DNA of 64,000 bases from the NCBI GenBank assembly GCA_032161105.1, contig JAVHTD010000001.1. One strand, written 5' to 3'. Shown here one piece after another: positions 1,376 to 17,329 of the stretch. The translations under genes were made by a program, and so were the position numbers. Each line of letters starts with the position of its first letter. Position 1 is the stretch's first letter. The DNA comes from Candidatus Thermosaccharophagus tengchongensis (GTDB taxonomy: Bacteria; Armatimonadota; Fervidibacteria; Fervidibacterales; Thermosaccharophagaceae). The notes beneath the pieces were generated by a model. The model did no database searches, was not told the DNA's origin, and saw only the letters and a program-made list of their open reading frames with translations.

Positions 1376-3313
1376 GTGGCGATGGTTAGCGCAAGGACAA
1401 CATGTGGCTTTTGTGGGTGCGGTTGTGGCTTATATGTGTTGAGCGACGGCGATGGCGTCATCGGTGTAATACCGAGTGAGGCTGATGTGGTTGGCGAGGG
1501 CAGGTTGTGTATTCGTGGATGGCATATATATCAGCCGCTCAGGGACACGGATAGGATTTTGCGAGCCATCGTCTCGCTCAACGGATCCAAGCGTGAAGCG
1601 GATTACAAAGATGCAGTTTCGCGTGCTGCTGAGGCGCTCAAAAAATTTTCTCCGAACCAGATTGGCATCATTGCTTCGGCAACGGGCACAAATGAGGACG
1701 CATACATAGCTACAAAGTTTGCCAGAGCTGTCATTGGCACAAATAACATTGACTTCCCGGGACGCCCAAGGCTTATGCCAACGCTGATGCAGCTTGGCTC
1801 GGTTGATGAAGGCATATCAATGCCATGCACATTAAACGAGTTGGCGGATGCCGACTTGCTCTTCTGCATTGGCATCGGTGCTTCAACTCGCTACCCGCAG
1901 GTCACGGCGCGCATTTTCAAATCCGTCGTTGAGATGAAACATCTTCTGCTCATAGACACATGGCACTCGGACTTCGCGCCGTATGCATCACTGCACATCT
2001 CGCCAAAGCCGTTTTCGGATGCCGTCCTTTTGAGGGCGCTCGCCGGCATCTTGGACAGCGCTGTTAAAGTTCCATTCTCCGATGACGAGGTTAGCTCCAT
2101 AACTGGCGTAAGCTCGGAGCAACTTAGGGCGATGGGCGATTTGCTTTTGGGCGGCAAGCGTTTGGCTGCAGTTTACGATACGGCATCTCTGATGCACATG
2201 TGCTCGCCACATTGCGTTCGTGAGCTGTTGGTGTTAATCAGAGCCCTCAGGGGGAGGGGCATTGAATGGTGCGGTATTTTGCCCATGGTTGAGCGATGCA
2301 ACTCAAACGGCGCATTGCGCATGGGCATTGCGCCCATGCTCCTTCCCGGGTTGAAGAGCATAACGGATGGCGAAGCGGTGCGACGGGCATGCTCAATTTG
2401 GGGCATTGATGGCTTGCCGCAAGTGATGGGCATGAGCACATCTCAAATGCTATCGGCAGCTGTGAGCGGTGACTTGAAGGCTCTGATCATCATCGGTGAC
2501 GATTTGCTGACCGATGTCCCGGATGAGCAGCGGCTCAGGGACGCGCTCAGCAAAGTTGAGTTGCTAATTGCTATCTCGTCATACCATTCGCCGCTCACGG
2601 AGGCAGCTCGGTTCGTATTCCCGAGGTCAATTTGGGGTGAGACAGTGGGCACGCTTGTGAACACGGAGGGACGAATGCGCCGGCTCATAAGGGTTGCCGA
2701 ACCACATGGTGATGCGATGCAGGAGTGGCAAGTGCTTTGCGACCTCGCAACGGCGCTCGGCTTCAAAATGAGCTATTCAAGCAGCGATGAAGTGCTTGAT
2801 GAGTTGAAGCGTTTTGTGCCCGAATATTCTGACATTGAGCTGGACGAGGTGGGAAAGGGCACATGCCTGCTCCGTGAAAAGCCGGCGTGCGCACCAGAGA
2901 ACATCACACACGAGGAAATCGCCATACCCGAATTGCCATCTCCCTCCGATGAGTTCCCGTTGCTGCTTCTGGTTGAGCGATACTACTTGCCGTGGCATGC
3001 GGATACACTTGCGCTTCACTCGTCAACTCTTCGGCGCGAGTTCAGGCTCCGGTTTACGCCATATGTGTTCGTCAATTCGGCGCAAGGACATTCGTTTGGC
3101 TTGCGAGATGGCATGCCGGCGCTCCTAAAGACACCGCAGGGGAGTGCACGCGTGACATCAGTCTTTAACGACGCCGTCCCAGCTGGCATTGCCATACTAC
3201 CCGAGATGTTCTTTGCTCAACTGCGCCAAGCAGTCGGACAGGAAAGGGTTGACGAGCTCACTGGGGCAACCATTTACCCGGTGACAGTGGCGGCATTGGA
3301 GCGTGCAAGATAG
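1376..3313 (+). CDS. Formate dehydrogenase alpha-like / NuoG-like molybdopterin oxidoreductase family protein, apparently lacking the catalytic Cys/Sec
   Basis: N-terminal CGFCGCGC...C 4Fe-4S motif; TNEDAY..KFARAVIGTNNID and GTLVNTEGR segments typical of FdhF; active-site loop reads NNIDFPGRPRLMP instead of NNxDxCARxC/UH. Confidence 0.75.
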   Translation: MAMVSARTTCGFCGCGCGLYVLSDGDGVIGVIPSEADVVGEGRLCIRGWHIYQPLRDTDRILRAIVSLNGSKREADYKDAVSRAAEALKKFSPNQIGIIASATGTNEDAYIATKFARAVIGTNNIDFPGRPRLMPTLMQLGSVDEGISMPCTLNELADADLLFCIGIGASTRYPQVTARIFKSVVEMKHLLLIDTWHSDFAPYASLHISPKPFSDAVLLRALAGILDSAVKVPFSDDEVSSITGVSSEQLRAMGDLLLGGKRLAAVYDTASLMHMCSPHCVRELLVLIRALRGRGIEWCGILPMVERCNSNGALRMGIAPMLLPGLKSITDGEAVRRACSIWGIDGLPQVMGMSTSQMLSAAVSGDLKALIIIGDDLLTDVPDEQRLRDALSKVELLIAISSYHSPLTEAARFVFPRSIWGETVGTLVNTEGRMRRLIRVAEPHGDAMQEWQVLCDLATALGFKMSYSSSDEVLDELKRFVPEYSDIELDEVGKGTCLLREKPACAPENITHEEIAIPELPSPSDEFPLLLLVERYYLPWHADTLALHSSTLRREFRLRFTPYVFVNSAQGHSFGLRDGMPALLKTPQGSARVTSVFNDAVPAGIAILPEMFFAQLRQAVGQERVDELTGATIYPVTVAALERAR

Positions 3314-3343
3314 CAATTGATGTGCTTGTGAGGGGTGGGGAGC

Positions 3344-4432
3344 ATGTCAGGCGCATCGGCGGAGATAAGAGCAATGGTGCTCCGCAAGGAAAGGCTCAAT
3401 GATTTGCTTTGGTCAATTGAGGGTCAGTTAGCTGCGCCCATTCGCCTTGAGCATGGCGAGGTTCACTTTGCGGTCAATCCGCCAATTGAGCAAATCTTGC
3501 AGGACTCAGATTATGTGAACAGCACAATATCGCCTGTGGCACTCCTTTTCCCGCAGACCGAGATCCTCTTCAATTTCAAGCTCAATGGCAAGCCGCAAAT
3601 TGAGTTCCCAAAGGAGCCACAGCCGCTGACCATATTCGGCATACGCTCGTGTGATGTTGCGGCAATGCGTTACCTTGAGATGTTCTTCTCGCGCAAGTTC
3701 ATTGACACCCCATTCATGGAGCGAGCCAGCAGGACAACGCTGATAAGCATAGCCTGCCAGCGTCCGGGAAGCAGCTGCTTTTGCCCATGTTGTGCTGGCG
3801 GTCCATTCCTTGAGGAGGGGCATGACATTCAACTCACCGACTTTGGAGACATCTTCCTCGTTGAGGTTGGCTCACATAAGGGCGCACAGTTTGCCGATGG
3901 GCGAATGGAGTTCTTTGAGCCGGCGCCATGCGAATTGATTGAGCGGCGAAACAGGGTGGCTGAGGAGACGCTGCAGAAGTTTCAGATTGCATCGCACATG
4001 GGCACTGGTGTCCGCAAATTGACATCAAGGTCGGTTTCAGAGGAGCTTTGGAATATGATGGCAGCGAGATGCATTGAGTGTGGCGGGTGCGCATTCGTGT
4101 GCCCGCTATGCACATGCTTTGATGTAGTTGACCACAAGCTTCCGCCAGATGGTGATGGGGCAGCTCGTGGTTGGCGGGAGAGGTGTTGGGATTGCTGTCA
4201 ATTTGCCGGCTACTCAATTGAGGCAGCTGGTGTTAATCCGCGCCCGAACAAGGTGAGCAGGTTTAAGCGCCGTTTCTATCACAAGCTCAGCTACTTCTAC
4301 ATGGAGATGGATGGGCGTGTTGGGTGCGTTGGCTGTGGGAGGTGCATCCAAGTCTGCTTTGGCGTCGTTGACATGCCGGCAGTGGTGAACACGCTTAGGG
4401 AAGAGAAGCTACTTGGGGTAAGGCTGAGGTAA
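3344..4432 (+). CDS. 4Fe-4S dicluster protein, AsrA / sulfhydrogenase beta (HydB) / FlxB-like
   Basis: FGIRSCD, C..CFC, CIECGGCAFVCPLCTCFD, WDCC and CVGCGRCIQVC motifs. Confidence 0.85.
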   Translation: MSGASAEIRAMVLRKERLNDLLWSIEGQLAAPIRLEHGEVHFAVNPPIEQILQDSDYVNSTISPVALLFPQTEILFNFKLNGKPQIEFPKEPQPLTIFGIRSCDVAAMRYLEMFFSRKFIDTPFMERASRTTLISIACQRPGSSCFCPCCAGGPFLEEGHDIQLTDFGDIFLVEVGSHKGAQFADGRMEFFEPAPCELIERRNRVAEETLQKFQIASHMGTGVRKLTSRSVSEELWNMMAARCIECGGCAFVCPLCTCFDVVDHKLPPDGDGAARGWRERCWDCCQFAGYSIEAAGVNPRPNKVSRFKRRFYHKLSYFYMEMDGRVGCVGCGRCIQVCFGVVDMPAVVNTLREEKLLGVRLR

Positions 4433-4484
4433 TTTTTGCGTGTATGTTCTTCAGCCTCGTTTGCTGTGGTGAGGTGAACTCAAC

Positions 4485-5378
4485 ATGGCAATGGAAGCAC
4501 TTCAAGCGGCATGTAACGGCAAGCATCTCTACGAACCGGTGTTGGCACGCATCGTTGAGATAACCGATGAAACGCCCGATGTGAAGACATTCACGCTTGA
4601 GCTTGAATGCGGCGCAATTGAATATCGTCCCGGGCAGTTTGCCGAGGTATCTGTGTTCGGCGTCGGTGAAGCGCCATTTGGCATCTCGTCAAGTCCGACA
4701 TGGACGAAGCGGACTGGGTATATCCAAGTGACTGTGCGTGCAGTTGGGAGGGTGACTGGTGCGCTCCATCAACTTAATGTTGGCGACTATGTTGGTGTGA
4801 GGGCACCATTGGGTAATGGTTTTCCGGTTGAGCGTGCCGAGGGTAAGCGCGTGATAATCGTCGGTGGCGGAATTGGCTTGCCGCCGCTTCGCTCCCTCCT
4901 CAATTACATGTTGGATAACCGTGAACGCTTCGGGAAGATAACTCTTCTCTACGGTGCACGCACACCTGCCGATAGGGTTTACAAGCGCGAGCTTGATGAA
5001 TGGGAAAGGCGAGATGATTTGGAATACCTGGACACGGTTGATATTGCCGATGAGGAGTGGCAAAGGCTCGGCAAGCGTGTTGGCGTTGTAACGACGCTCT
5101 TTCCGATAATAGACGAGCAAAGTCCCATTGACCCGCCAAACACGATCGCCTTCATCTGTGGACCGCCAATCATGATTCATTTCGTCATCATTGAACTTGA
5201 GAAGCGCAATGTGCCAGATGAGAACATCATCTCAACGCTTGAGCGACACATGAAGTGTGGCGTTGGCAAGTGCGGTCATTGCGCCATCGGGCACAAGTAT
5301 GTTTGCACCGATGGTCCCGTTTTTTCTTGGGCTGAGATGAAAGAGCTTGAATGGATGTGCGCTGAGCCAACTGTGTAG
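4485..5378 (+). CDS. FAD/NAD(P)-binding oxidoreductase, AsrB / sulfhydrogenase gamma (HydG) / FlxA-like
   Basis: PGQF, GEAPFGISS, GGGIGLPPLRS, LYGAR, CGPPIM and the ERHMKCGVGKCGHC...VCTDGPVF 2Fe-2S motif. Confidence 0.9.
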   Translation: MAMEALQAACNGKHLYEPVLARIVEITDETPDVKTFTLELECGAIEYRPGQFAEVSVFGVGEAPFGISSSPTWTKRTGYIQVTVRAVGRVTGALHQLNVGDYVGVRAPLGNGFPVERAEGKRVIIVGGGIGLPPLRSLLNYMLDNRERFGKITLLYGARTPADRVYKRELDEWERRDDLEYLDTVDIADEEWQRLGKRVGVVTTLFPIIDEQSPIDPPNTIAFICGPPIMIHFVIIELEKRNVPDENIISTLERHMKCGVGKCGHCAIGHKYVCTDGPVFSWAEMKELEWMCAEPTV

Positions 5379-5419: not shown

Positions 5420-5908
5420 GTGCCTGAGGAAAACCAATTGGAGGTTCTCTGTCGGGTGTTGAGGGGGAGGGTGGCTATCATCGGTATCGGAAATGAGATG
5501 CGCGGTGATGATGCGGTTGGATGTTATGTGGCTCGATGCCTTGAGGGTGTTGAAGATATGCTCGTAGTAGAGGCTGGCGATGTGCCCGAAAACTATGTTG
5601 GTCTGCTGCGCGAGTATAAACCCGAATGTGTTGTATTCATTGACGCCGTTGATGTTGGGGCTGAACCTGGCTCAATTGTCATAGCAAGTGCTGATGAGCT
5701 ACCATCTTCTGCCGTTGTGTCAACGCATGGTATGCCGTTGAAGTTGCTTTCCGATTACCTGCTCCGTGAAGTTGGCGCCAGAGTGATGCTCATTGGGATA
5801 CAAGTGCGCAGGACAGCACTTAATGCGCCGATAAGCAAAGAGGTGTGTGAGGCAGCTGAAGCGATTGTTGAGTTGATTCGCTCAGCACGATTGGCAATGA
5901 GGGCTTAA
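5420..5908 (+). CDS. hycI: Hydrogenase maturation endopeptidase, HycI-like
   Basis: GIGNEMRGDDAVG, PEN, FIDAVD and STHGMPL motifs; located inside a hydrogenase operon. Confidence 0.85.
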   Translation: MPEENQLEVLCRVLRGRVAIIGIGNEMRGDDAVGCYVARCLEGVEDMLVVEAGDVPENYVGLLREYKPECVVFIDAVDVGAEPGSIVIASADELPSSAVVSTHGMPLKLLSDYLLREVGARVMLIGIQVRRTALNAPISKEVCEAAEAIVELIRSARLAMRA

Positions 5909-5992: not shown

Positions 5993-6967
5993 TTGGTCAG
6001 CATGATATGGGTGATTTTGCACGCAAGTTTATCGCCTGCTACGGCAACAGTAGTGCAAGTTGCCGAGAGCGGAGAAAAGCAAGTTCGCCTCTTTAAGGTG
6101 GCATCGTTTAAGGTTGACCAATTGCCAGTGCTTGCCACTCGCTTTTCCGGCGAGATGCTGATGGCGCTTACTAAGGGAGGAAAAGCATGTGCTTTGAATG
6201 TGACGGCGCGCAAGCGTGTGCGTGAGTTTAAGTGTGCGGATAAACTCATTAAAGTCGGTGCGTTCTCAGGCGATGGCAAATGGCTTGCTTGTTCCGACGA
6301 GAGCCAAGTCGTTAAAGTTTATGAGTTAGCCAGCGGTAAGGAAGTTGCAACCATAAGGGGACATGGCGGCGAGATAAGGCAAATGGCATTCTCGCCGCAT
6401 GGAGAGTTGCTCGCAATCGCTTGCGAAGGTTGTTGCAACATGGAGGGAGATACACGCCTTTGGTGGGCAAAGTCGGGCAAGCTTTTTCGCAGGTTAAGTG
6501 GTGATGCCTTTAGCGTTGCATTTCTGGGTGGCAGCAAGCTTATTGCAGTTGGCGGAAGGAATGCTGTGGCAGTTTGGGATGTGAGTGAGGGGAAGATGGT
6601 GCGGAGGTTGCAAGTTGGGTTAAAGGTGAACAACATCTGCTTCTCTGACAAGCGTGGGTTGCTGATAGCCAGCGCTGCTGATGGTGTTCGTCCATTTGAG
6701 CTTTCAAGTTGGCGCGTTAAGCCGTTGATTGAGGTAAGGCGTGCAAGTTCGCTTTCATGCTCTCCGGATGGCTCGCTGCTCGCCGTTGGCACTTACGATG
6801 GTGTCACTGTTGTGGACACCATCAGATGGAAAGCCATTCTTCGGCTCACTGAACACGGTGGTTCTTTTACATCGGTGGCATTTTCTCAAGACGGAGCATT
6901 GCTTGCAGCCGCGAATGTTGGTGGGATGGTAGTGGTGTGGAAAGTGGTGAGGCAAAAACAGCGATAA
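5993..6967 (+). CDS. WD40-repeat beta-propeller protein
   Basis: Repeated AFSxDGxxLA / GH...W[DK] units; hydrophobic N-terminus; start uncertain (5993 or 6002). Confidence 0.75.
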   Translation: MVSMIWVILHASLSPATATVVQVAESGEKQVRLFKVASFKVDQLPVLATRFSGEMLMALTKGGKACALNVTARKRVREFKCADKLIKVGAFSGDGKWLACSDESQVVKVYELASGKEVATIRGHGGEIRQMAFSPHGELLAIACEGCCNMEGDTRLWWAKSGKLFRRLSGDAFSVAFLGGSKLIAVGGRNAVAVWDVSEGKMVRRLQVGLKVNNICFSDKRGLLIASAADGVRPFELSSWRVKPLIEVRRASSLSCSPDGSLLAVGTYDGVTVVDTIRWKAILRLTEHGGSFTSVAFSQDGALLAAANVGGMVVVWKVVRQKQR

Positions 6968-6982: not shown

Positions 6983-8491
6983 ATGGATAACATGGTTGTT
7001 TGGTGCATGCTCCTCATTGCCATTCCGGGTATCAGCGGGATTGTATGTGCGCTCTTGCCTGATAGGGCTTCGCGCATTGTTGCCACATTTGCGTCTCTCG
7101 CCACAGCCGGTGTTGGCTTATGGTTGATTGGCAACTATGGGTTTGAGGAAAATGTCGCGGAGTTGGGTGGCTTGGCTTGGATAACCAAGGTTGCAGGGGT
7201 AAGGGTCAACTTGTTTGGCTTCATCATTGATCCGCTAACGAGCATCATGCTATCGCTCGTTGTCGTGATTGGCTTCCTTGTCGTGCTTTATTCAACCGAC
7301 TACATTAGTTCCGGCAACAGGGAGCATCCAGTGACTAAAGGCGCATCGCGCTATTTCAGTTGGATGCTCTTATTCATCGCCTCAATGGCTGGCGTCGTCA
7401 CCTCTTCCACATTCCTTCAGCTTTTTATCTTTTGGGAGCTAACGACGCTGTGCTCATGGGCGCTCATCTCGTTTGACTATGATGATCCGGAAGCCATGCG
7501 TGCGGGCTACAAGGCGTTGTTGATGACGCATGTTGGTGGGCTGTTCTTGATGACCGCTGTCGTATTGCTCTTTGCGCACACGAGGTCGTTTGATTTTAAC
7601 GCCATGACTCGGCTCACTCCGACCATGCAAGCCACATTGATAGTGCTGATGTTCATAGGCGCTTGGGCGAAGGCTGCGCAGTTTCCATTTTACACATGGC
7701 TTCCCGATGCAATGGTTGCACCAACGCCGGTCAGCGCATATTTGCACGCTGCTGCCATGGTCAAAGCCGGAATATACTTGCCAGCAAGGGCAGTGCTTGC
7801 AGTTCGTCCATTCCTGAAAGCCTTCCAATCAACGGCTCTTGACACTGCTGGAATACTTATGGGCGCACTCTCAATCATCACGATTATCGTGGGGTGCTAC
7901 ATGTTCTTCTACCAAGACGACTTGAAACGCTTGCTCGCTTTTTCAACGATAGTTCACCTTGCGCATGTCCTGATGGAGTGGGCATGCGGTTCACTTGGTT
8001 GCTCAATATGCTATCAAAGCGGCTTAGTGCACATTATCGCTCACGGTGTTGGGAAAGGTTTGCTTTTCCTATCTGTTGGTGCGGTGGCATATGCGACCGG
8101 CACAAGGCGCATAAGTCAACTCAGTGGTGTTGGCTTAAAGATGCCGATTGTAACGGTTGGCTTTCTCATCGGTGTGCTGACCATCTCAGGTTTACCACCG
8201 TTTGCGGGCTTTTGGAGCAAGCTTTATTTTGTCGCTGGAGCAATAACGCTTGGCAGATGGGGTATACTTTTTGTCATCGTGGGTCTGGTTGATGCCATCA
8301 TACGATTTGGTTGGTTCATATGGGTAGCTCACAAAGTGTTTGCCGGCGAACCATCAGAGCCAGTCCGCAATGCCAGCGGGATTCCACTTGCTATTGGGAC
8401 AGCGGTTGTCATCATGATGCTGCTTTGTTTTGTTTCAACACCATTTGCTGTGCAAATGGCTGCAACTGCTGTTGGGCTTTGTGTTGGTTGA
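6983..8491 (+). CDS. hyfD: Hydrogenase-4 membrane subunit D-like (NuoL/MrpA antiporter family)
   Basis: Polytopic membrane protein with FWELTTLCSWALI and FYTWLPDAMVAPTPVSAYLHAAAMVK. Confidence 0.75.
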   Translation: MDNMVVWCMLLIAIPGISGIVCALLPDRASRIVATFASLATAGVGLWLIGNYGFEENVAELGGLAWITKVAGVRVNLFGFIIDPLTSIMLSLVVVIGFLVVLYSTDYISSGNREHPVTKGASRYFSWMLLFIASMAGVVTSSTFLQLFIFWELTTLCSWALISFDYDDPEAMRAGYKALLMTHVGGLFLMTAVVLLFAHTRSFDFNAMTRLTPTMQATLIVLMFIGAWAKAAQFPFYTWLPDAMVAPTPVSAYLHAAAMVKAGIYLPARAVLAVRPFLKAFQSTALDTAGILMGALSIITIIVGCYMFFYQDDLKRLLAFSTIVHLAHVLMEWACGSLGCSICYQSGLVHIIAHGVGKGLLFLSVGAVAYATGTRRISQLSGVGLKMPIVTVGFLIGVLTISGLPPFAGFWSKLYFVAGAITLGRWGILFVIVGLVDAIIRFGWFIWVAHKVFAGEPSEPVRNASGIPLAIGTAVVIMMLLCFVSTPFAVQMAATAVGLCVG

Positions 8492-8590
8492 ACATGCTCA
8501 GCAACTCCTTAAGCGATTGCTCATTTGAAGCTTTTCGGCGTCCTTGCGAGGTGGATAGCTTGCACAGGCAAAAGTGAGGTGGCAGAAGTT

Positions 8591-10651
8591 ATGCAGCTCT
8601 CCCAGGAAGGCTTTGCATTCGCTATTATGGGCGTCTTCTTCATCGGCGCGCTTGTGACGGCGGCAACTTCTTCGCTGCGCCGTTTGACGGCATGGGTGGG
8701 GTTCATTTTCACACTCGCTGGTTCGGTGCTGTGTATGATGATTGCTGTCAAAGCCTTCTATGCACCTGCGGTTGAACCTGGGCGTCCTCACCTCACCCTG
8801 CCAATCTTGAATGCATCGCTTCAGGTCCGCATTGATGCGTTGTCATCTCCCTTCTTGTTCATTATCGGTTTGCTCGGCACATGTGCTGCACTATACTCCG
8901 TTGGCTATATCACGCACGAGCGCTACAGGGAGGAGCATCTGATTCGCTATTATCCGTTTCTGATGTTCTTCCTCATGGGCATGGTTGGCACAGTAGCGAG
9001 CTGGGATATGTTTTACTTCCTCGTCTTTTGGGAACTGATGGCGCTTTCATCTTATGTGCTCATCATCTTTGAGAAGCGCGATCCAGTTGTGTTGCGTGCT
9101 GGCTTGAAATATTTTGTGATGACTCACATCGGCACAACTTGTATTGTCACTGGCGTCATCATTGTTTGGCTCTGGTGCAGGTCATTCAGCTTTGATTCAC
9201 TGAAGATCGGCATGGAAGTCCTCTCACAGGAGCGACCGAGGTTACTTCACCTTGTGCTGCTTTTGCTTTTCATTGGTTTTGCCACTAAGGCAGCTCTATT
9301 CCCATTTGGCGATTGGCTGCCAGACGCTCACCCAGCTGCTCCCTCAGCAATTTCGGCATTGCTATCTGGCGTGATGATAAAGATGGGCGTGTATGGCATG
9401 CTCCGCACATTCGTTTGGATGATGCCATACTCACCGCACCTTAGCACATGGGGATTGATTATAGCCTTCTTTGGCGCACTGACATTTGTTGTGTGCTCCA
9501 CAGCTGGCTTGTTCCAAAACGATTCAAAACGCCTATTGGCGTTCAGCAGCATGTCGCAGATAGGCTATGTATGTGTTGGAATTGGTGTTGGCGTTGGCTT
9601 TCTTCGCGTCTCGCCAGCGATAAGCGCACTCGGATTTATCGCTGGGTTGTATCATGTCCTCAATCACGCATGCATGAAAGGACTGCTCTTCCTGAATGCC
9701 GGCTCTGTTCTGATTCGCACTGGAACTCGCGACATGAACTTGCTTGGCGGCTTATGGCGCTTCATGCCAACGACGGCTCTGACAGCGCTCATTGCCTCCC
9801 TCGCTATATCCGGCATGCCGCCGCTCAACGGGTTTGTAAGCAAGTGGATGGTTTATCATGCGTCCATTATGAGCGGCTTGCAAGCTCCTGTGTATCTTGC
9901 TTTCGGCGTAGCTGCCATTTTCATCTCGGTCGTCACGCTCGCCATGTTTGCCAAATTCATGGGCGCAATCTTTATCGGGTTGCCATCAAAGCTCGTGAGC
10001 CAAATTGAGTGGCAGCTCCGTGAGGTTGATTGGACCATGACTGTATCACAAGTTGTGCTTGCGCTTATGTGCATTGCGCTTGGGCTTTTCCCCTCACATG
10101 TTGTGCCAATCCTTTACTGTGCCGTTGAAACCATGCGCCCTGAGTTTGCACCGCCAATTGATGCGCTCATCTCCGGCACACCAATCTCGCTTGGACTATG
10201 CGTTGGTGAGGGTGTCTCTGGCGTTTTTTCGCCGCTCGTTTTTGTGCTGGCACTCATGCTGTGCATGCTCATCCCATATGCCCTTTATAAGCTCTCAGGT
10301 GCTCAAGTTAGAGTTGCATCACCATGGGCATGTGGCGAGTCGCATTCGCACGATGAATTGCGATATCGCTCAAGCAGCTTTTACCTTCCGTTCCAAAGAT
10401 TCATGTCCTTTAGGATTGGTCAAAGGCGCATAACGACACTCTATCCGACATTGCCAAAGCCGAGAACTCCATGGCTGGCAAAGCTTCGCGTCGTCTTTGA
10501 TGTGGACACGCTTTACAATGCTGTCATTCGTGTCGGAGCGAGGGCGTGTGAATGGTTCAGCGCGACACATGCCGGAATCCCACAGCTTTATGTGTTGTGG
10601 ATAGTTGCCGGTGTGGTGCTCGCAATCTTGTTGCTCTTTTTGCTCTCCTAA
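8591..10651 (+). CDS. hyfB: Hydrogenase-4 subunit B / HycC-like antiporter-type membrane subunit
   Basis: FWELMALSSY, WLPDAHPAAPSAISALLSGVMIKMG, PPLNGFVSKW, WACG; GAGGTGG RBS before ATG 8591. Confidence 0.75.
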   Translation: MQLSQEGFAFAIMGVFFIGALVTAATSSLRRLTAWVGFIFTLAGSVLCMMIAVKAFYAPAVEPGRPHLTLPILNASLQVRIDALSSPFLFIIGLLGTCAALYSVGYITHERYREEHLIRYYPFLMFFLMGMVGTVASWDMFYFLVFWELMALSSYVLIIFEKRDPVVLRAGLKYFVMTHIGTTCIVTGVIIVWLWCRSFSFDSLKIGMEVLSQERPRLLHLVLLLLFIGFATKAALFPFGDWLPDAHPAAPSAISALLSGVMIKMGVYGMLRTFVWMMPYSPHLSTWGLIIAFFGALTFVVCSTAGLFQNDSKRLLAFSSMSQIGYVCVGIGVGVGFLRVSPAISALGFIAGLYHVLNHACMKGLLFLNAGSVLIRTGTRDMNLLGGLWRFMPTTALTALIASLAISGMPPLNGFVSKWMVYHASIMSGLQAPVYLAFGVAAIFISVVTLAMFAKFMGAIFIGLPSKLVSQIEWQLREVDWTMTVSQVVLALMCIALGLFPSHVVPILYCAVETMRPEFAPPIDALISGTPISLGLCVGEGVSGVFSPLVFVLALMLCMLIPYALYKLSGAQVRVASPWACGESHSHDELRYRSSSFYLPFQRFMSFRIGQRRITTLYPTLPKPRTPWLAKLRVVFDVDTLYNAVIRVGARACEWFSATHAGIPQLYVLWIVAGVVLAILLLFLLS

Positions 10652-10693
10652 TGAGCTGTGGCAGTGAAAAGCCGAGTATTGGAGGGATGCAGC

Positions 10694-12421
10694 ATGACTT
10701 CGCAGGAGCTGATCCAAAGGCTTCGTGAGGATTTGAATGGCAAGGTGATTGATTGCTGGGAGCCGAGAGATGGAAGGGTGTTTGTAAAAGTTTCACCAAG
10801 CGATATCGTGTCAGTTTGCGATTATGTCTTCAACACGCTTGGTGCACGCTACATGACCACTTGCGCAACCGATGACAGATTCCGCACAGGCAAGTTTACA
10901 GTGACTCACTTCTTCTCGCTTGACCCCGACAAGCTATTCCTGTCCATTAGGGCTGAAGTGGATCCTGAAAATCCGGTGCTCCCATCAATCACACCGCTTA
11001 TTCCGGGTGCTGATTGGGCTGAGCGTGAGCAGCAGGATTTGGTCGGAGTCAGGTTTGAGGGTCATCCAGATCCGAGGAGACTTGTGTTGCCCGATGATTT
11101 CCCGCTTGACTTGCACCCGTTGCGCAAGGATTACCCATACAACTATCGCCCGCAGCCCGATATGCGTGGCAAGGTCGCGATGAAGGAGCCGCCTGATGGA
11201 ACGACAGTGGTCGCAGTTGGACCTTTCTTTCCGGTCCTTGAGGAGCCGGCATACTTCAGGCTTTTCGTTGATGGCGAGACGGTTGTTGGCTGCGATTATC
11301 GTGGCTTTTACAATCACCGCGGCATTGAGAAGCTCGGCGACAGCAAGCTCACATTCAATCAAATTGTTTTCCTTGCCGAGCGCATATGAGGGATATGAGG
11401 CTTCATACACAGCACGGTGTGCTGTGAGGCTACAGAAAACGCTCTCGGAATAAGGGCACCAAGGCGAGCGAGATTCATCAGAAGTATTATGCTTGAGATT
11501 GAGCGAATACATAGCCATCTGCTTTGGCTTGGCATTGCGGGGCATATAATCGGCTTTGATACAGTGCTTATGCAGGCGTGGCGCATACGAGAACCAGTAA
11601 TGTGGCTTGCTGAATACATCACCGGCAATCGCAAAACATACGGCATGAACATCATTGGTGGCGTAAGGCGGGATATAACAAGGGAGAAGCATGAGCGCAT
11701 CCTTGAAGTGATGAGGCGAGTTGAGGAGGAAGTAGTGGCAATCATAAAGGCGGTTGAGGGTGACACGATGCTCCATGCAAGGCTTCGTGGCGTTGGGTAT
11801 CTTTCACCTGAGGATGCAAGGGCAATGTGCGTTGTTGGTCCGACTGCGAGGGGCTCTGGAGTCGCAATTGATGCGCGTGTTGATCATCCATACGCAGCAT
11901 ATGATGAACTTGTGCCGGAAAAGAAAGTGCATGACGAGTGCGACATATGGGCAAGGACGCTCGTGCGCCTTGAGGAAACGATGGAATCAATCAGGCTCGT
12001 TAGAGAGGGCATAAAAGCGCTTCAGGATATGCCAGAGGGCGACATAGTCATTAACATAACCGAGGATGTGCCTGAGGGTCTTGAGGGCATATCAGTTGTT
12101 GAGGCGCCACGAGGCGAGTGCATCCATTATGTCATCACGAGCGCGGAAAATAGACCGCACAGATGGCGAGTCCGTGCACCCTCATACATGAACATCCATG
12201 CGCTGCCTGTCATGTTCAAAAACACAAATGGAGGTATACCGGGCGAGCCATTCATTAACGCGAACCTTGCAGACATACCGATAATTGTTGGGAGCATTGA
12301 CCCATGCTTCTCATGCACCGAACGAGTTGAAGTGATTGATGTTAGGAACAGGCAGATGAGAGTTTTCAGGCACAGTGAATTGATTGAGCTGTGTAGGCAA
12401 GCCACAAGCCGAAATAGATAA
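10694..12421 (+). CDS. hyfG: Group 4 [NiFe]-hydrogenase large subunit (HyfG/HycE, NuoCD-like), 575 aa if two in-frame TGA codons (11387-11389, 11396-11398) are read as Sec
   Basis: ORFs 10658-11389 and 11417-12421 are in the same frame; the bridge reads AERI-TGA-GI-TGA-GFIHSTVCCEATENALG, matching HycE RVCGICGFAHS; C-terminal DPCFSCTER plus extension; GGAGG RBS at 10681. Confidence 0.88.
11399..11431 (+). promoter_or_regulatory. Putative bacterial SECIS element
   Basis: Perfect 8-bp stem CACAGCAC-GGT-GTGCTGTG (11408-11426); alternative lower-stem register GCTTCA/TGAGGC; loop starts with G and lies 17 and 26 nt after the two TGAs. Confidence 0.75.
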
Positions 12422-12459: not shown

Positions 12460-13026
12460 TTGGAAGGGCAAGAGATGGATGAATTCTTGAGGTTAGTGTT
12501 GGAGGGCGTTGATGTGGAAGCATTAGCAGCTGGCGATAACCGTGAACTTGAAAGGTTCAAGGCGAACATGCTTAGGGTTGGAAGGATGATTTACTCAAAG
12601 CCGCCAGCTGAGAGGGCAAGGTGGTTTTCGGCATTGAGGGCTGGCTCACTTCAGTTAATTGCTCAAATACCCATCATTACACCGATGCTGACTGCAATCC
12701 TTGAGAGCGCCACCGGGGAAGACCTTGGAAGCAAAATAGATGCCCTTGGAAGCAAAATAGACGCCCTTGGAGGAAAAATAGACGCCCTTGGAAGCAAAGT
12801 GGATGCCCTTGGAGGAAAAATAGACGCCCTTGGAAGCAAAGTGGACGCCCTTGGAGGAAAAATAGATGCCCTTGGAAGCAAAGTGGACGCCCTTGGAGGA
12901 AAAATAGACGCCCTTGGAAGGGACTTGGGCGGGAAGATGGATCAAATGTTGAGCTTGCAAAGGGAAACAATCGGCTTCCTTGCGAGGATATTGAATGTGC
13001 TTGAGGAGAGGTTGCCGCGAGCATGA
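12460..13026 (+). CDS. Heptad-repeat coiled-coil protein of unknown function
   Basis: Nine (I/V)DALG(S/G)K-type heptads; GGGGGGTGA RBS before TTG start. Confidence 0.75.
   Translation: MEGQEMDEFLRLVLEGVDVEALAAGDNRELERFKANMLRVGRMIYSKPPAERARWFSALRAGSLQLIAQIPIITPMLTAILESATGEDLGSKIDALGSKIDALGGKIDALGSKVDALGGKIDALGSKVDALGGKIDALGSKVDALGGKIDALGRDLGGKMDQMLSLQRETIGFLARILNVLEERLPRA
12736..12924 (+). repeat. Coding tandem repeat, 9 x 21 bp with 42-bp higher-order alternation
   Basis: Units such as ATAGACGCCCTTGGAAGCAAA / GTGGACGCCCTTGGAGGAAAA directly abutting, no spacers. Confidence 0.95.
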
Positions 13027-13055: not shown

Positions 13056-13967
13056 ATGCTCAGGCTCTGGCTGGCTATACTCAATGTGATTGTGGTCCTA
13101 TTCTTTGCACCGCTATTTGAGGGGTTTGTCCGCAAATACATACGGGCTAATGTCGCGCATTCAAGGAGAGGTCCACTTGTCGGTGTATGGCAGCCGTTTT
13201 ATGACTTGCTAAAGCTGTTTGCGAAGGAGGACATACGGGTTGGCGGTCCACTTCAAACATTCATGCCCATGTTGTGCTTCAGTTCAATCTTGGTGGCTTC
13301 TTTGTTTTTGCCGATTGCAGGTCTTGCGCCACTTGAGGAGTATGGGGATATCATAGCTTTCGTTTACACAATAGGACTGGCTATCACGGCGCTCGCCATT
13401 ACTGCGTTGGATACAGGTTCGCCATATTCATACTCCGGTGCGATTAGGGAATTGATGCTCATGGCATTGGTTGAGCTCGTGTTCATCAGTGCCTTGCTTT
13501 GCGGTGCCGTATGCGCTCGTTCTCTGAGGTTATCCGAGATAATCCTTTGGTATCGTTCCCGGGCGTTTTCTTTCCCGATGATTTTAGCTGCGGGCACACT
13601 CTTCTTAGCCATGCTTGCTCAGTTTGGTCGCCTCCCATTTGACATACCGGAAGCAGAACAAGAGATCATGGGCGGACCGCTCATTGAAATTTCTGGACCA
13701 AGGCTTGCCCTGCTCAGATGGGCAATATGGATGCGTCAGTTTGTAAGCGCGTCGCTGTTTGCATGTGTGTTTATACCTTGGTGGACGACAGGCATACTCA
13801 TCGTTGATTTGCTCATAACGCTCATAAAGGTGTTTGTGGTGTTTGTCTTGGTCACCGTGATTGAGGTGCTCTCGCCCCGTCTTAGAGTTGATCAGGCACT
13901 CAACTTTTACCTTGGCGTTTTTCTCACATCGGCGATAGCGATTGCTATTGCCTATGTCGCGCCATAA
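13056..13967 (+). CDS. hyfC: Hydrogenase membrane subunit HyfC/HycD (NuoH family)
   Basis: SRRGP..WQPFYDLLKL, GSPYS, RLPFDIPEAEQEIMGGPLIEISG, SPRLR. Confidence 0.85.
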   Translation: MLRLWLAILNVIVVLFFAPLFEGFVRKYIRANVAHSRRGPLVGVWQPFYDLLKLFAKEDIRVGGPLQTFMPMLCFSSILVASLFLPIAGLAPLEEYGDIIAFVYTIGLAITALAITALDTGSPYSYSGAIRELMLMALVELVFISALLCGAVCARSLRLSEIILWYRSRAFSFPMILAAGTLFLAMLAQFGRLPFDIPEAEQEIMGGPLIEISGPRLALLRWAIWMRQFVSASLFACVFIPWWTTGILIVDLLITLIKVFVVFVLVTVIEVLSPRLRVDQALNFYLGVFLTSAIAIAIAYVAP

Positions 13968-14000
13968 AGCGAACCAATGGCGTTGGAGGGGGCATATCCA

Positions 14001-14510
14001 ATGATAGGGAGCAAGTTGAGGGAATTGATAATAGCAATTCGTGGTGGTGCTCCAAGACCGCTCGTTGTGACTTTGCCATATCCGCTTGGGCGAGGCGCTG
14101 AGGTCCCCGAGGGCTTTAGAGGGAAGGTTGAAGTTGATGTATCAAAGTGTGTTGGGTGTGGTGGGTGCGCGAATGTGTGCCCGCCAAGGTGCATTATTGT
14201 TGAGGACATCTCTCCGCTTTGGAGGAGAATGACAATACTGAGGGAGAGGTGCACATACTGTGCGCGCTGCCAAGAAGTGTGTCAGGAGAACGCCATAGCC
14301 CTTACGATGGAGTTTGAGCTTGCCACTGATGACCCAAACGACCTAACCGATACTTGGGAAGTCTTCATGGCAACATGTTCACGCTGTGGCAGATGCTTCA
14401 AGCCGAAAACAGCTTTGGATAAGATGATGGAAACGGGCTATAAGCCGCCAATGCAAAAGCGCTATGGTGCTGTCGCAACAGTGCCAGTTGAGTCAAGCTC
14501 GTCATCTTGA
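14001..14510 (+). CDS. hyfH: Hydrogenase 2x[4Fe-4S] subunit HyfH/HycF (NuoI family)
   Basis: TLPYP..FRGK, CVGCGGCANVCP, CTYCARCQEVC and a C-terminal CSRCG. Confidence 0.85.
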   Translation: MIGSKLRELIIAIRGGAPRPLVVTLPYPLGRGAEVPEGFRGKVEVDVSKCVGCGGCANVCPPRCIIVEDISPLWRRMTILRERCTYCARCQEVCQENAIALTMEFELATDDPNDLTDTWEVFMATCSRCGRCFKPKTALDKMMETGYKPPMQKRYGAVATVPVESSSSS

Positions 14511-14525
14511 AAGGGGTGAACTGGT

Positions 14526-15209
14526 ATGCCCTTAGCTATCCAACAGAGTGACATTTTGGCATTGCTCATGATTGCGCATCTTCTTGCATCACTTGTGGCA
14601 GCTGAGTTGCGCAACCTGCGCTCAGCCGTATGGGCTCTCATTATTCAATCCTTCCTCCTGACATGCATCATAGCCTCGTTCGCTTTCGTCTGGAACAACT
14701 ATACGCTTTTGATCTGGGCGGCTATAACCCTCGCAACGAAGGTCGTCCTTATCCCGTCAATCTTGCTCTACCACCTGCGCGTCACATCGCTCGTGACGGA
14801 GCTCCGCCCGTTGATCGGATTGAGAGCCTCAATCATATTTGGAAGCATCCTCGTCATCGTCTTCTACTGGTTGCTTCGCACATACATCTACTTCGTTGCT
14901 CCAACGCAAGCTGCATTGGTTGAGCCAGCACGCTCAAACCTCGCCATCGCATTTTGCGTTTTCTCACTCGGCGTTTATGTGCTTATCACCAGAAGGGATG
15001 TGGTTAAGGTTGTCATAGGGTTGCAGCTGCTTGAAAATGGTGCTCACTTGGCGCTCATTACACTGGCGCCAACATTGCCACCAACAACGAAGCTCGGGAT
15101 ATGGACGAATGTCGTCGTCGCAGCTTACATGCTCATTAAGCTTGCAGAGGGCATCTACAAGACGCTCGGCGTTGTTGATACTCTAACGCTCTCAGAACTT
15201 AAGCGTTAA
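14526..15209 (+). CDS. hyfE: Hydrogenase-4 membrane subunit E-like
   Basis: Hydrophobic; TKVVLIPSIL, LLENGAHL and C-terminal LSELKR typical of HyfE. Confidence 0.75.
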   Translation: MPLAIQQSDILALLMIAHLLASLVAAELRNLRSAVWALIIQSFLLTCIIASFAFVWNNYTLLIWAAITLATKVVLIPSILLYHLRVTSLVTELRPLIGLRASIIFGSILVIVFYWLLRTYIYFVAPTQAALVEPARSNLAIAFCVFSLGVYVLITRRDVVKVVIGLQLLENGAHLALITLAPTLPPTTKLGIWTNVVVAAYMLIKLAEGIYKTLGVVDTLTLSELKR

Positions 15210-15242
15210 ACGGCGCACGGCAACAGGTGAGGTGTTTTAGAC

Positions 15243-16766
15243 ATGATGGTGGAATCGTGGTTGCCCATCCTTGTCTTCGCCATCCCAACAATTTGTGGCG
15301 TCATAAGCCTTTCCTTCAGGCGTGCAAGCGCTCTCTTTCACAGCGTGATCGCCGTCCTCGGGCTTGCTGGGACATTTGCCATCTCTGTGGCAATCACAAG
15401 TGATGTGCTGCGCGGCAATGTGCTTGTCGCGCTCAATAATGCTGTTTATGCCGATGGTCTAAGTGCCTTGATGGAATTGCTCGGAAGCTGCATGGGGATG
15501 CTCGTGGCTATCTATTCAATCCGATACATCCCAATTCATGTTGCCCGCCGCCCCGATGCGCCTCAGAGGCTTAGCACATACTATGGGCTGTTGCTCCTCT
15601 TCCTTGGGATGATGAATTGGACATGCGTGACAAACAGCATTGTTTGGCTTTATGTCACGCTTGAGGCTACAACGCTTGCCACTGTCTTCCTCGTGACATT
15701 TTATTGGGAGAGGCGCTCGCTTGAAGCCGGCTACAAATATTTCATGCTTGTGACGATCGGGATCATATTTTCCCTCTTTGGTCTCGTGCTCATTTATTCA
15801 GGTGCTGTGGAGCTGCCGGAAATGCAAGGGCGTGATGTGCTCCTTATAACCGAGCTCAGCAGGATCGGGCGAAAGATACCGCGCAGCGTTGTGCTGCTTG
15901 CAAACGCGCTTCTCATTGCTGGCTTTGGAGCGAAGGCTGGGCTTGTCCCATTCCATGCATGGCTTCCGGATGCGCACGCAGAGGCACCAGCACCAATTAG
16001 CGCTTTGCTATCGGGTATCGTGATAAAGGTCGGCGCATACGCTATCGCAAGGACTGCAACAATATTTGCACCCCAGTATCCGCCTATCATAGTCTTCATT
16101 GCAATCATGGCTTCACTGAGCATGGTCGTCGGGATACTGATGGCGCTCGTCCAAGACGACATAAAGCGCATGCTTGCATACTCATCCGTAAGCCAGATTG
16201 GTTATGTTGTTGAGGGGCTTGGTCTTGGGACATACCTTGGAATTTATGGCGGTCTGTTCCACCTCGCAAACCACACCATCGTCAAGGCGCTTCTCTTCCT
16301 TTCCGCTGGTGCGATTGCGCATGTTACTGGCACAAGGAAGATGAGCGAGCTTGGTGGGCTCGTGCATCGGATGCCAGTTACAGCTGTTTGCTTCTTCATT
16401 GGCGCGCTCGCCATCGGCGGGTTGCCACCGTTTAATGTGTTCATGAGCAAGTTCACACTTTTTGCCGCTGTGGCTGATGCCGGTCTGATATGGGCTGCGG
16501 TGATAGCAGTGTTTACAGGGCTGTTAACAGTGGCGTGCTTTGTGCGTGCTGCGATGCGCATATTCTGGGGCAAGCCGTCGGAGATTACTCAGGCTGCTTT
16601 AGCGTATGCGAATGGTGGCGAAGGAAGGTTGCCTATGAGTATGGTTATCCCGATGGTCTTGCTCGCCATCTTAACGGTGGTAATCGGTCTTTATCCGGGA
16701 TTGATTCACCCGCTGTTGGATAGCGCAACAGAGTGCATTTTGAAGGTGCTTCGTGGGGCATTCTGA
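15243..16766 (+). CDS. hyfF: Hydrogenase-4 membrane subunit F-like (antiporter family)
   Basis: LEATTLAT, SLEAGYKY, KAGLVPFHAWLPDAHAEAPAPISALLS, KRMLAYSS. Confidence 0.8.
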   Translation: MMVESWLPILVFAIPTICGVISLSFRRASALFHSVIAVLGLAGTFAISVAITSDVLRGNVLVALNNAVYADGLSALMELLGSCMGMLVAIYSIRYIPIHVARRPDAPQRLSTYYGLLLLFLGMMNWTCVTNSIVWLYVTLEATTLATVFLVTFYWERRSLEAGYKYFMLVTIGIIFSLFGLVLIYSGAVELPEMQGRDVLLITELSRIGRKIPRSVVLLANALLIAGFGAKAGLVPFHAWLPDAHAEAPAPISALLSGIVIKVGAYAIARTATIFAPQYPPIIVFIAIMASLSMVVGILMALVQDDIKRMLAYSSVSQIGYVVEGLGLGTYLGIYGGLFHLANHTIVKALLFLSAGAIAHVTGTRKMSELGGLVHRMPVTAVCFFIGALAIGGLPPFNVFMSKFTLFAAVADAGLIWAAVIAVFTGLLTVACFVRAAMRIFWGKPSEITQAALAYANGGEGRLPMSMVIPMVLLAILTVVIGLYPGLIHPLLDSATECILKVLRGAF

Positions 16767-16813
16767 TTTCATCGTTTTTGTGGTGGCGCAGATTCCCCCG
16801 TGAGGTGAGCATA

Positions 16814-17329
16814 ATGGTCGGATGGTTTAGAGGGTTGTGCGAGAAGGCGTTCACGAAGGCACTTTGGGTCTTTCATGCAAACACCGGCGCATGTAACGGG
16901 TGCGACATTGAGGTCATCAATGTGCTCACCCCATATTACGATGCCGAGCGTTTTGGTATAAGGCTCGTTGGCTCACCGAGACATGCGGATGTGATCATCG
17001 TCACAGGTCCAGTTACAAGGCAATCCGCGCCAGCGCTTGAGCGGCTGATTGAAGCTGTTCCATCACCAAAGTTGATCATCGCCGTCGGCTCTTGCCCGAC
17101 TGGTGGAGGGATGTGGTTTGACTCGTATTCCACATGTGGTGGCTTAGCTAACTTCCTCAAGGACAGAGGGATCAACATACCCGTGTATTACATCCCGGGA
17201 TGCCCACCTCGTCCTGAAGCAATCCTATACGGTGTGGCATTGGCACTTGGCTTGGTTGACAAGAAGGTGGCTGGGAAGCATCTCAAGCAGGGGTTGCTCC
17301 CGCCGAAGAAGAGCAGCGATGAGCAATGA
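16814..17329 (+). CDS. hyfI: Group 4 hydrogenase small subunit HyfI/HycG (NuoB family)
   Basis: GACNGCDIE, SPRHAD, GSC, IPGCPPRPEAI; GAGGTGA RBS. Confidence 0.88.
   Translation: MVGWFRGLCEKAFTKALWVFHANTGACNGCDIEVINVLTPYYDAERFGIRLVGSPRHADVIIVTGPVTRQSAPALERLIEAVPSPKLIIAVGSCPTGGGMWFDSYSTCGGLANFLKDRGINIPVYYIPGCPPRPEAILYGVALALGLVDKKVAGKHLKQGLLPPKKSSDEQ

Follow-up and report, generated by a model that had tools for sequence, protein, structure and literature searches.

We analyzed a 64,000-nucleotide (nt) stretch of contig JAVHTD010000001.1 (assembly GCA_032161105.1) from the hot-spring Armatimonadota bacterium Candidatus Thermosaccharophagus tengchongensis; the window, below, means this whole stretch. 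It encodes the large subunit of a Group 4b nickel-iron hydrogenase, of the hydrogen-producing kind, in which both N-terminal nickel-binding cysteine positions are UGA codons (UGA1 and UGA2), and an in-frame hairpin follows UGA2. Our reading is that this single hairpin acts as a selenocysteine insertion sequence (SECIS) and directs SelB-dependent recoding of both UGAs, in a functional UXXU-type Group 4b [NiFeSe] hydrogenase large subunit (U, UGA-encoded residue). We put its probability at about 75%. The gene, the hairpin, and the single-SECIS hypothesis are already known as an in silico prediction, because Takano et al. (Front Microbiol, 3 September 2026; PMC13582414) list the protein and hairpin and raise the hypothesis.

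The UGA pair and its hairpin

With the standard code, the frame at 10658/10694-12421 (+) is interrupted by TGA at 11387-89 and 11396-98. Its ATG at 10694 is the published start, and an in-frame GTG lies further upstream at 10658. When TGA is translated as U, there is a single 588-codon frame that includes ERIUGIUGFIHSTVCC. The read-through protein has the Pfam domains Complex1_30kDa, Complex1_49kDa, and NiFeSe_Hases (NuoC-like plus NuoD-like), and its residues 16-576 align with Escherichia coli HycE (PDB 7Z0S chain E) with an E value of 4e-125. The N-terminal nickel motif is ERIUGIUGFIHS here and DRVCGICGFAHS in E. coli. The features of the gene are as follows.

10694..12421 (+), large subunit, NuoC-like fused to Group 4b [NiFe]-hydrogenase (HycE/HyfG-like); translation, Pfam, HycE alignment
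11387..11389 (+), UGA1, first Cys position of R-x-C-G-x-C (terminal Ni ligand); sequence, translation, alignment
11396..11398 (+), UGA2, second Cys position of R-x-C-G-x-C (Ni-Fe bridging); sequence, translation, alignment
11399..11405 (+), 5' arm of the lower stem, beginning right after UGA2, a feature of the genus; folding
11408..11426 (+), putative SECIS core, an 8-bp upper stem with a GGU apical loop (11416-11418), on the H-S-T-V-C-C codons; folding, homologues
11425..11431 (+), 3' arm of the lower stem; in one register, it shares the final 2 nt of the upper stem; folding
12349..12366 (+), C-terminal Ni-binding motif DPCFSC with both Cys retained, identical in congeners; coordinates from the translation

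The protein has the characters of a Group 4 large subunit: the NuoD-like/NiFeSe_Hases fold, and the motifs R-x-C-G-x-C-xxx-H and D-P-C-x-x-C with UGA counted as Sec (selenocysteine) or Cys. The Group 4b label is taken from a table in PMC13582414 rather than from a classifier.

The upper stem is formed by CACAGCAC (11408-11415) and GTGCTGTG (11419-11426) around the loop GGT (11416-11418), and there is an alternative lower pairing of GCTTCA (11400-11405) with TGAGGC (11425-11430). The loop G is 26 nt from UGA1 and 17 nt from UGA2. A first-pass annotation, made from the sequence, had reported the TGA positions, the perfect stem, the loop, the alternative pairing, and both distances, and we confirmed all of them. 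It had also described the hairpin as SECIS-like and placed to serve both UGAs. In the consensus model for bacterial SECIS elements (bSECIS; PMC13188914), the apical loop has 3 to 9 nt and the upper stem 4 to 16 bp, a G is at loop position 1 or 2 and is usually followed by G or U, the spacing is 16 to 37 nt, and the minimum free energy (MFE) is -7.5 kcal/mol or lower. The hairpin agrees with this model on all four counts: loop and stem size, loop G, spacing to both UGAs, and MFE (the 19-nt core by itself has -10.8 kcal/mol, and the extended hairpin has -16.4 kcal/mol). An Rfam scan of 11340-11500 with E values up to 10 returned no SECIS family, although the suitability of the Rfam models for such bacterial elements was unchecked; the sole match was a chance snoRNA (E value, 8.9).

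Both TGAs and the hairpin are retained in all four genomes of the genus, which are the source genome (G000) and its congeners G001, G002, and G003 (protein identity, 88 to 100%; 88 to 89% for the three congeners). The next-best 13 homologues, at 52 to 57% identity, have no in-frame stops. A third TGA in G001 was rejected as a further candidate; it is the gene's ordinary stop codon. The ratio of nonsynonymous to synonymous substitution rates (dN/dS) is 0.02 to 0.06 on either side of the pair (upstream of UGA1, downstream of UGA2), with dS at about 1 to 2.8 in seven of eight comparisons and undefined through saturation in the eighth. Purifying selection acts on both sides of the TGAs. Also, four runs from as many independent studies have contigs that span 11250-11550, and these show 0 differences; no RNA run was listed as containing the stretch. 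The TGA pair is not an error or the mark of a pseudogene, because it is kept across the genus, dN/dS is low on both sides, and the independent contigs agree.

Synonymous conservation is concentrated at the same place. Of the conserved degenerate codons in the gene, 132/444 (30%) are identical in all four genus genomes, and in the motif plus hairpin the count is 11/15. The top-scoring 13-codon windows of the whole gene are those of the motif and hairpin. In G003 there are two substitutions in the lower stem, and pairing is preserved.

Stem pairing and codon choice in homologues

Two scans of public genomes gave 111 motif rows. After a spurious row (L056, position 5314) was dropped and duplicates were merged, the unique set had 81 members: 15 UGxU, 3 CGxU, and 1 UGxC (19 TGA-type), and 62 CGxC (Cys-type). 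A pattern search matched 31 stretches, 15 of them identified as the in-frame hydrogenase motif. Pairing was scored over seven positions, the homologues of 11408-11414/11420-11426 in the stem.

Six or seven of the seven positions are paired in all 19 TGA-type homologues, which come from several phyla, whereas three or fewer are paired in 54 of the 62 Cys-type homologues. Codon choice within the hairpin separates the two types as well. The Ser codon is AGY in 19/19 TGA-type sequences versus 6/59 Cys-type sequences, the Thr codon is ACG in 19/19 versus 7/43 (its third base is the equivalent of the loop G), and the Cys codon is TGT in 19/19 versus 13/59. The mean MFE over 70 nt was tried as a discriminator and rejected, because Cys-type sequences are the more stable by this measure; position-specific pair counts were used instead. 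The two types are separated by position-specific pairing only and not by overall folding energy. Kept in every TGA-type homologue, mostly lost from Cys-type ones, and lying in the synonymously most conserved part of the gene, the hairpin appears from this comparison to be beyond chance.

The first-pass annotation had argued that the peptide HSTVCC departs from the E. coli HycE sequence as expected if RNA structure constrains codon choice. The stem codons are fixed in the TGA-type sequences. Opposite 11405-11424, E. coli HycE reads HSTAYT (7Z0S_E) and not HSVAYT as had been assumed. In the other UXXU clades the peptide is HSTCYC, from which that of the genus differs at two residues. The nucleotide changes behind HSTVCC lengthen and strengthen the stem.

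We built a quick maximum-likelihood tree of 83 large-subunit sequences. The span considered ran from 200 residues upstream of the motif to the C terminus; rows with under 450 residues in it, and rows identical to another throughout it, were left out. The tree has three UGxU clades, and the CGxU sequences are in two lineages apart from each other. Those Cys-type sequences that have remnants of the hairpin are mostly next to TGA-type clades. The sole UGxC sequence (L053:3685-3750, Deltaproteobacteria bacterium RBG_13_43_22) is nested within a UGxU clade; it is a Group 4b-like large subunit with a UGA at the first motif position only and the same hairpin. Homologues with only UGA1 and homologues with only UGA2 therefore both occur, and they have the same hairpin in the same place.

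Two registers of the window's hairpin are nearly isoenergetic: a 13-bp stem with a GCACGG loop (-16.4 kcal/mol) and the 8-bp stem with the GGU loop plus the lower stem (-16.0 to -15.7 kcal/mol), a gap of less than 1 kcal/mol. It had been proposed that two such registers could support successive decoding of the two UGAs, in two tiers. However, the Acidobacteriota/Chloroflexota UXXU clade has a weak lower stem or none, and a lower stem similar to that of the genus is present in the CXXU form L050, which has only UGA2. Therefore, the two-register idea gains no support.

Proposed decoding of the two UGAs

The source genome has a tRNA-Sec (75.9 bits; called SeC with anticodon TCA by ARAGORN) and SelB (413 bits). 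It also has a SelD with an in-frame UGA of its own, which was the best match of the SelD family search, and the selD UGA is followed at 18 nt by a SECIS-like hairpin with the same GGU triloop. This provides the likeness to another SECIS of the same genome that the first-pass annotation had called for. Our selenoprotein count is based on searches for four families (SelD, molybdopterin, FlpD, and AhpC-TSA). Within these searches, which are not a full scan, there was no in-frame TGA in the molybdopterin (0/2), FlpD (0/1), or AhpC-TSA (0/2) matches. A heuristic genome-wide selenoprotein scan (612 candidates) was discarded, because its length filters excluded the hydrogenase and selD positives.

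A second tRNA may be relevant. A tRNA-Sec-like tRNA-Cys, or tRNAReC, is present in all four genus genomes, with 93% identity in the three congeners, and there are weaker matches (71 to 74% identity) in 4/20 genomes of the sister family. It has 92 nt, anticodon GCA, discriminator U, and a long variable arm of 8 bp, and it scores 46.7 bits on the Rfam tRNA-Sec model, for which the cutoff is 47. Takano et al. (PMC13582414) define tRNAReC by a length of at least 80 nt, a GCA or UCA anticodon, and discriminator U. The 92-nt tRNA has all of these characters, and therefore one UGA or both could receive Cys. The two loci in the source genome are as follows.

G000 C5:91187-92119 (-), SelD selenoprotein (L011), motif ...SGUASK...; family search
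G000 C10:44437-44528 (-), tRNAReC (L003/L146), in a tRNA cluster; tRNA search

In the mechanism that we propose, both UGAs would be recoded during translation by SelB acting on one in-frame SECIS, the 8-bp stem and GGU loop at 11408-11426. Once UGA1 was decoded, the ribosome would advance three codons, and a second SelB-GTP-aminoacyl-tRNA complex would reuse the same, still folded upper stem for UGA2. For the residue delivered, tRNA-Sec would supply Sec, or the tRNA-Sec-like tRNA-Cys(GCA) might supply Cys instead. The two UGAs, the hairpin with its conservation, the purifying selection around them, and the machinery genes are observations; SelB binding, the two successive deliveries, and the identity of the inserted residue are what we infer.

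Several observations count in favor of this mechanism. Read-through restores a full HycE homologue within a complete hydrogenase operon. The genome has tRNA-Sec, SelB, and a UGA-bearing SelD with a GGU-loop hairpin. The UXXC form nested in a UXXU clade and the CXXU forms all have the hairpin; these forms with one UGA or the other provide the best available argument that the hairpin can serve either codon. Since the hairpin is in the same place in both kinds of homologue, the most economical explanation is that the two codons share it. The hairpin is placed best for UGA2, in the normal register, because its distance to the loop is 17 nt and that in the selD SECIS is 18 nt. UGA1 is 9 nt out of register, at a distance of 26 nt that is still inside the 16- to 37-nt range of bacterial SECIS elements.

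Other observations weigh against it. The distance from UGA1 to the loop is 8 nt longer than that of the selD UGA. Work on E. coli has found the spacing between UGA and SECIS to be critical. Folding of 11380-11450 gives -21.9 kcal/mol with a z score of only -1.93, and 9/200 shuffled sequences were equally good; therefore, thermodynamics alone is modest evidence. Over 70 nt, the mean MFE is -22.4 kcal/mol for Cys-type sequences versus -14.2 kcal/mol for TGA-type sequences, and the greater stability of the Cys type is probably a matter of base composition. The hairpin is not exclusive to TGA forms, because 8/62 Cys-type homologues have more than three stem pairs and 3/62 have six or seven. Loss of the hairpin from Cys homologues, which had been set as a check, thus holds for most of them but not for these three (L040, L037, and L092). 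Each of the three adjoins a TGA-type clade in the tree, and their hairpins are either relics of Sec-to-Cys reversion or hairpins that were there beforehand. The Fisher P values for codon choice (1e-10 to 1e-13) overstate independence, because the TGA-type sequences are interrelated. A search for covariation among TGA homologues had also been suggested. It yielded one compensatory change (U-A to C-G), in this genus only, but five of the eight stem pairs are invariant, covariation amounts to a single event, and the count of pairs changed on both sides was reached by 220/500 shuffles. Finally, SelA (TIGR00474, PF03841) was not found in the 97%-complete source assembly or in G001. It scores more than 580 bits in G002 and G003, where it is on short contigs or contig ends, and an assembly gap is the likely cause of its absence from the other two.

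The alternatives differ mainly in what they assign to UGA1. Decoding could be mixed: the hairpin and SelB would act at each of the two codons, but Cys from tRNA-Cys(GCA) would enter at one UGA (UGA1, which is out of register, is the most plausible) or at both. The mature nickel site in that case would be CXXU or CXXC, or else a mixture that depends on selenium. We regard this as a possibility to be taken seriously, although the odds are against it. The presence of a tRNAReC-type tRNA throughout the genus is in its favor, as are the data in PMC13582414: tRNAReC is listed there for 5/5 Armatimonadota UXXU genomes and for 56% of UXXU genomes versus 2.3% of other Sec-type genomes, and the Discussion says that it may insert Cys. 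However, the GCA anticodon is mismatched to the A of UGA, and that tRNAReC is charged by CysRS, bound by SelB, and able to decode UGA is taken from Vargas-Rodriguez 2018 as cited by Takano et al. (PMC13582414). Moreover, UGC or UGU would be cheaper if Cys were the sole product, and the genus retains tRNA-Sec, SelB, and a Sec-type SelD. It is unlikely that the hairpin serves UGA2 only, with UGA1 left to a separate element, to near-cognate suppression independent of the hairpin, or to a small 5' stem that pairs UGA1 with CUUCA. The 17-nt spacing does resemble the 18 nt of selD, with UGA1 at 26 nt, CXXU is the commonest published type (27/47; PMC13582414), and the bSECISearch drawing in a table of that paper has a small extra stem that includes UGA1. 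Against this, L053 has UGA1 alone with the same hairpin and is nested in a UXXU clade, 26 nt is within the known range, and we saw no other conserved structure between the UGAs, where the gap is just 6 nt.

Two further explanations would do away with recoding, and we give them very little weight. Standard-code lists of open reading frames (ORFs) have 10658-11389 and 11417-12421 as separate frames, as would be the case in a pseudogene or split gene with termination at UGA1 and a separate C-terminal product from the GTG at 11417. But dN/dS is low on both sides, and the TGAs are kept in 4/4 species of the genus; three clades that span phyla have both. A split gene would also lose the N-terminal nickel ligands, yet the DPCFSC motif, HycI, and the small subunit are retained. 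We consider this explanation highly improbable. Even less probable is that TGA is a sense codon genome-wide. Nothing beyond the two in-frame TGAs speaks for an alternative code, whereas the code is evidently standard because TGA terminates many long, ordinary ORFs of the genome (for example, 11/21 of those listed around selB). The in-frame TGAs of this gene are only at Cys positions, and a dedicated tRNA-Sec, SelB, and SelD exist.

SelB-dependent recoding of both UGAs by one SECIS remains our preferred reading. We also entertain a more speculative one, which as a whole we think rather improbable: the genus might keep its Sec machinery essentially for one enzyme, with a nickel site tunable via UGA1. 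SelD and the hydrogenase were the sole UGA-containing genes found among the families searched. The SECIS would be tuned to UGA2, and UGA1 may be served mainly by SelB carrying Cys-tRNAReC(GCA), with the nickel site alternating between Cys/Sec and Sec/Sec ligation with selenium supply. The SECIS would be thermally adapted by the genus-specific change from a 7-bp stem with a 5-nt loop to a GC-richer 8-bp stem with a GGU loop, a change paid for with two amino acid replacements (HSTCYC to HSTVCC). If true, this would be a natural, tunable bridging-selenolate [NiFe] center.

The hydrogenase cluster and known systems

The genes around the large subunit are a formate-hydrogenlyase-like cluster. In agreement with a Group 4 operon, Pfam matches place the small subunit, NuoH-, NuoK-, and antiporter-like membrane subunits, and the endopeptidase in one operon with the large subunit.

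1376..5378 (+), formate dehydrogenase (FDH)-like molybdopterin protein, 4Fe-4S dicluster protein, and NAD-binding/Fe-S protein, in the upstream part of the cluster; Pfam
5420..5908 (+), HycI-type hydrogenase maturation protease; Pfam PF01750
6983..10651 (+), two antiporter-like membrane subunits (6983-8491 and 8525-10651); Pfam Proton_antipo_M, Proton_antipo_N
13056..16766 (+), NuoH-like, 2x[4Fe-4S] ferredoxin, NuoK-like, and antiporter-like subunits; Pfam
16733..17329 (+), NuoB-like hydrogenase small subunit; Pfam PF01058

The FDH-like molybdopterin protein has zero stops within its match and hence no in-frame TGA. The gene content at 1376-5378 (+) agrees with a cluster type that Takano et al. 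(PMC13582414) propose as possibly electron bifurcating. A WD40 beta-propeller protein (5993-6967, +), between hycI and the antiporter-like subunits, is an unusual operon neighbor. Between the large subunit and the NuoH-like gene is a 188-amino-acid ORF (12460-13026, +) with weak coiled-coil-type Pfam matches only. Elsewhere in the source genome, ARAGORN called three odd or long tRNAs, a 98-nt Arg(ACG), an 87-nt His, and an 83-nt Ser(ACT), which may be false positives or noncanonical.

G000 C9:77613-77710, C21:22132-22218, and C21:29437-29519, odd ARAGORN tRNAs; ARAGORN

Takano et al. (PMC13582414) describe 47 Sec-type Group 4 hydrogenases, of which 16 are UXXU, five of these from this Armatimonadota genus (DRYI01). 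In row 194 of their Supplementary Table 1, the protein is identical to that of the window across the 400 residues given, and the 60-nt putative SECIS, which has a bSECISearch hit, and the tRNAReC(GCA) sequence are likewise the same. According to their Discussion, decoding of both UGAs may take place under a single downstream SECIS. Nothing substantive separates our candidate from the UXXU Group 4b [NiFeSe] hydrogenases of DRYI01 as presented there, and both are in silico. Takano et al. report UXXC in Group 4e only. To this our analysis adds independent confirmation, position-specific pairing counts, tests of synonymous constraint, the comparison with the selD SECIS that registers the hairpin on UGA2, a Group 4b UXXC form (L053), and a negative result on the two registers. 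Our literature searches returned no experimental test of the prediction. We conclude that the feature is real, that it is striking biologically, and that the first-pass annotation drew a reasonable main inference.

Sec at the N-terminal nickel ligands, including the one that bridges Ni and Fe, would be a chemistry absent from characterized [NiFeSe] hydrogenases. The [NiFeSe] hydrogenases of Groups 1 and 3 (Desulfovibrionaceae and Methanococcus) likewise have Sec in place of a nickel-ligating Cys of the large subunit. However, those enzymes have Sec at the first position of the C-terminal motif, whereas here the C-terminal Cys is kept and both N-terminal ligands are encoded by UGA. UxxU motifs have been predicted in three other bacterial families, those of a Prx-like thiol:disulfide oxidoreductase, of a putative metal-binding protein, and of an FmdB-family protein (PMC13188914). 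These also have two UGAs with two sense codons between them, but they are different protein families and, as described there, predictions only.

A UGA pair three codons apart with a single hairpin is a test of the reach of SelB and of rapid reuse of one SECIS. Like the canonical bacterial SECIS of the E. coli fdhF type, the hydrogenase hairpin is within the coding sequence, directly 3' of a UGA, with a small G-G/U loop at 16 to 37 nt. It differs in two ways: a pair of UGAs, three codons apart, is presumed to depend on it, and no bulged U is evident in its 8-bp stem. Eukaryotic selenoprotein P has several UGAs and few SECIS elements, which are in the 3' untranslated region and act at a distance via SBP2 and eEFSec. 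The hydrogenase candidate shares with it the combination of multiple UGAs and few SECIS elements but would depend instead on an in-frame hairpin for SelB.

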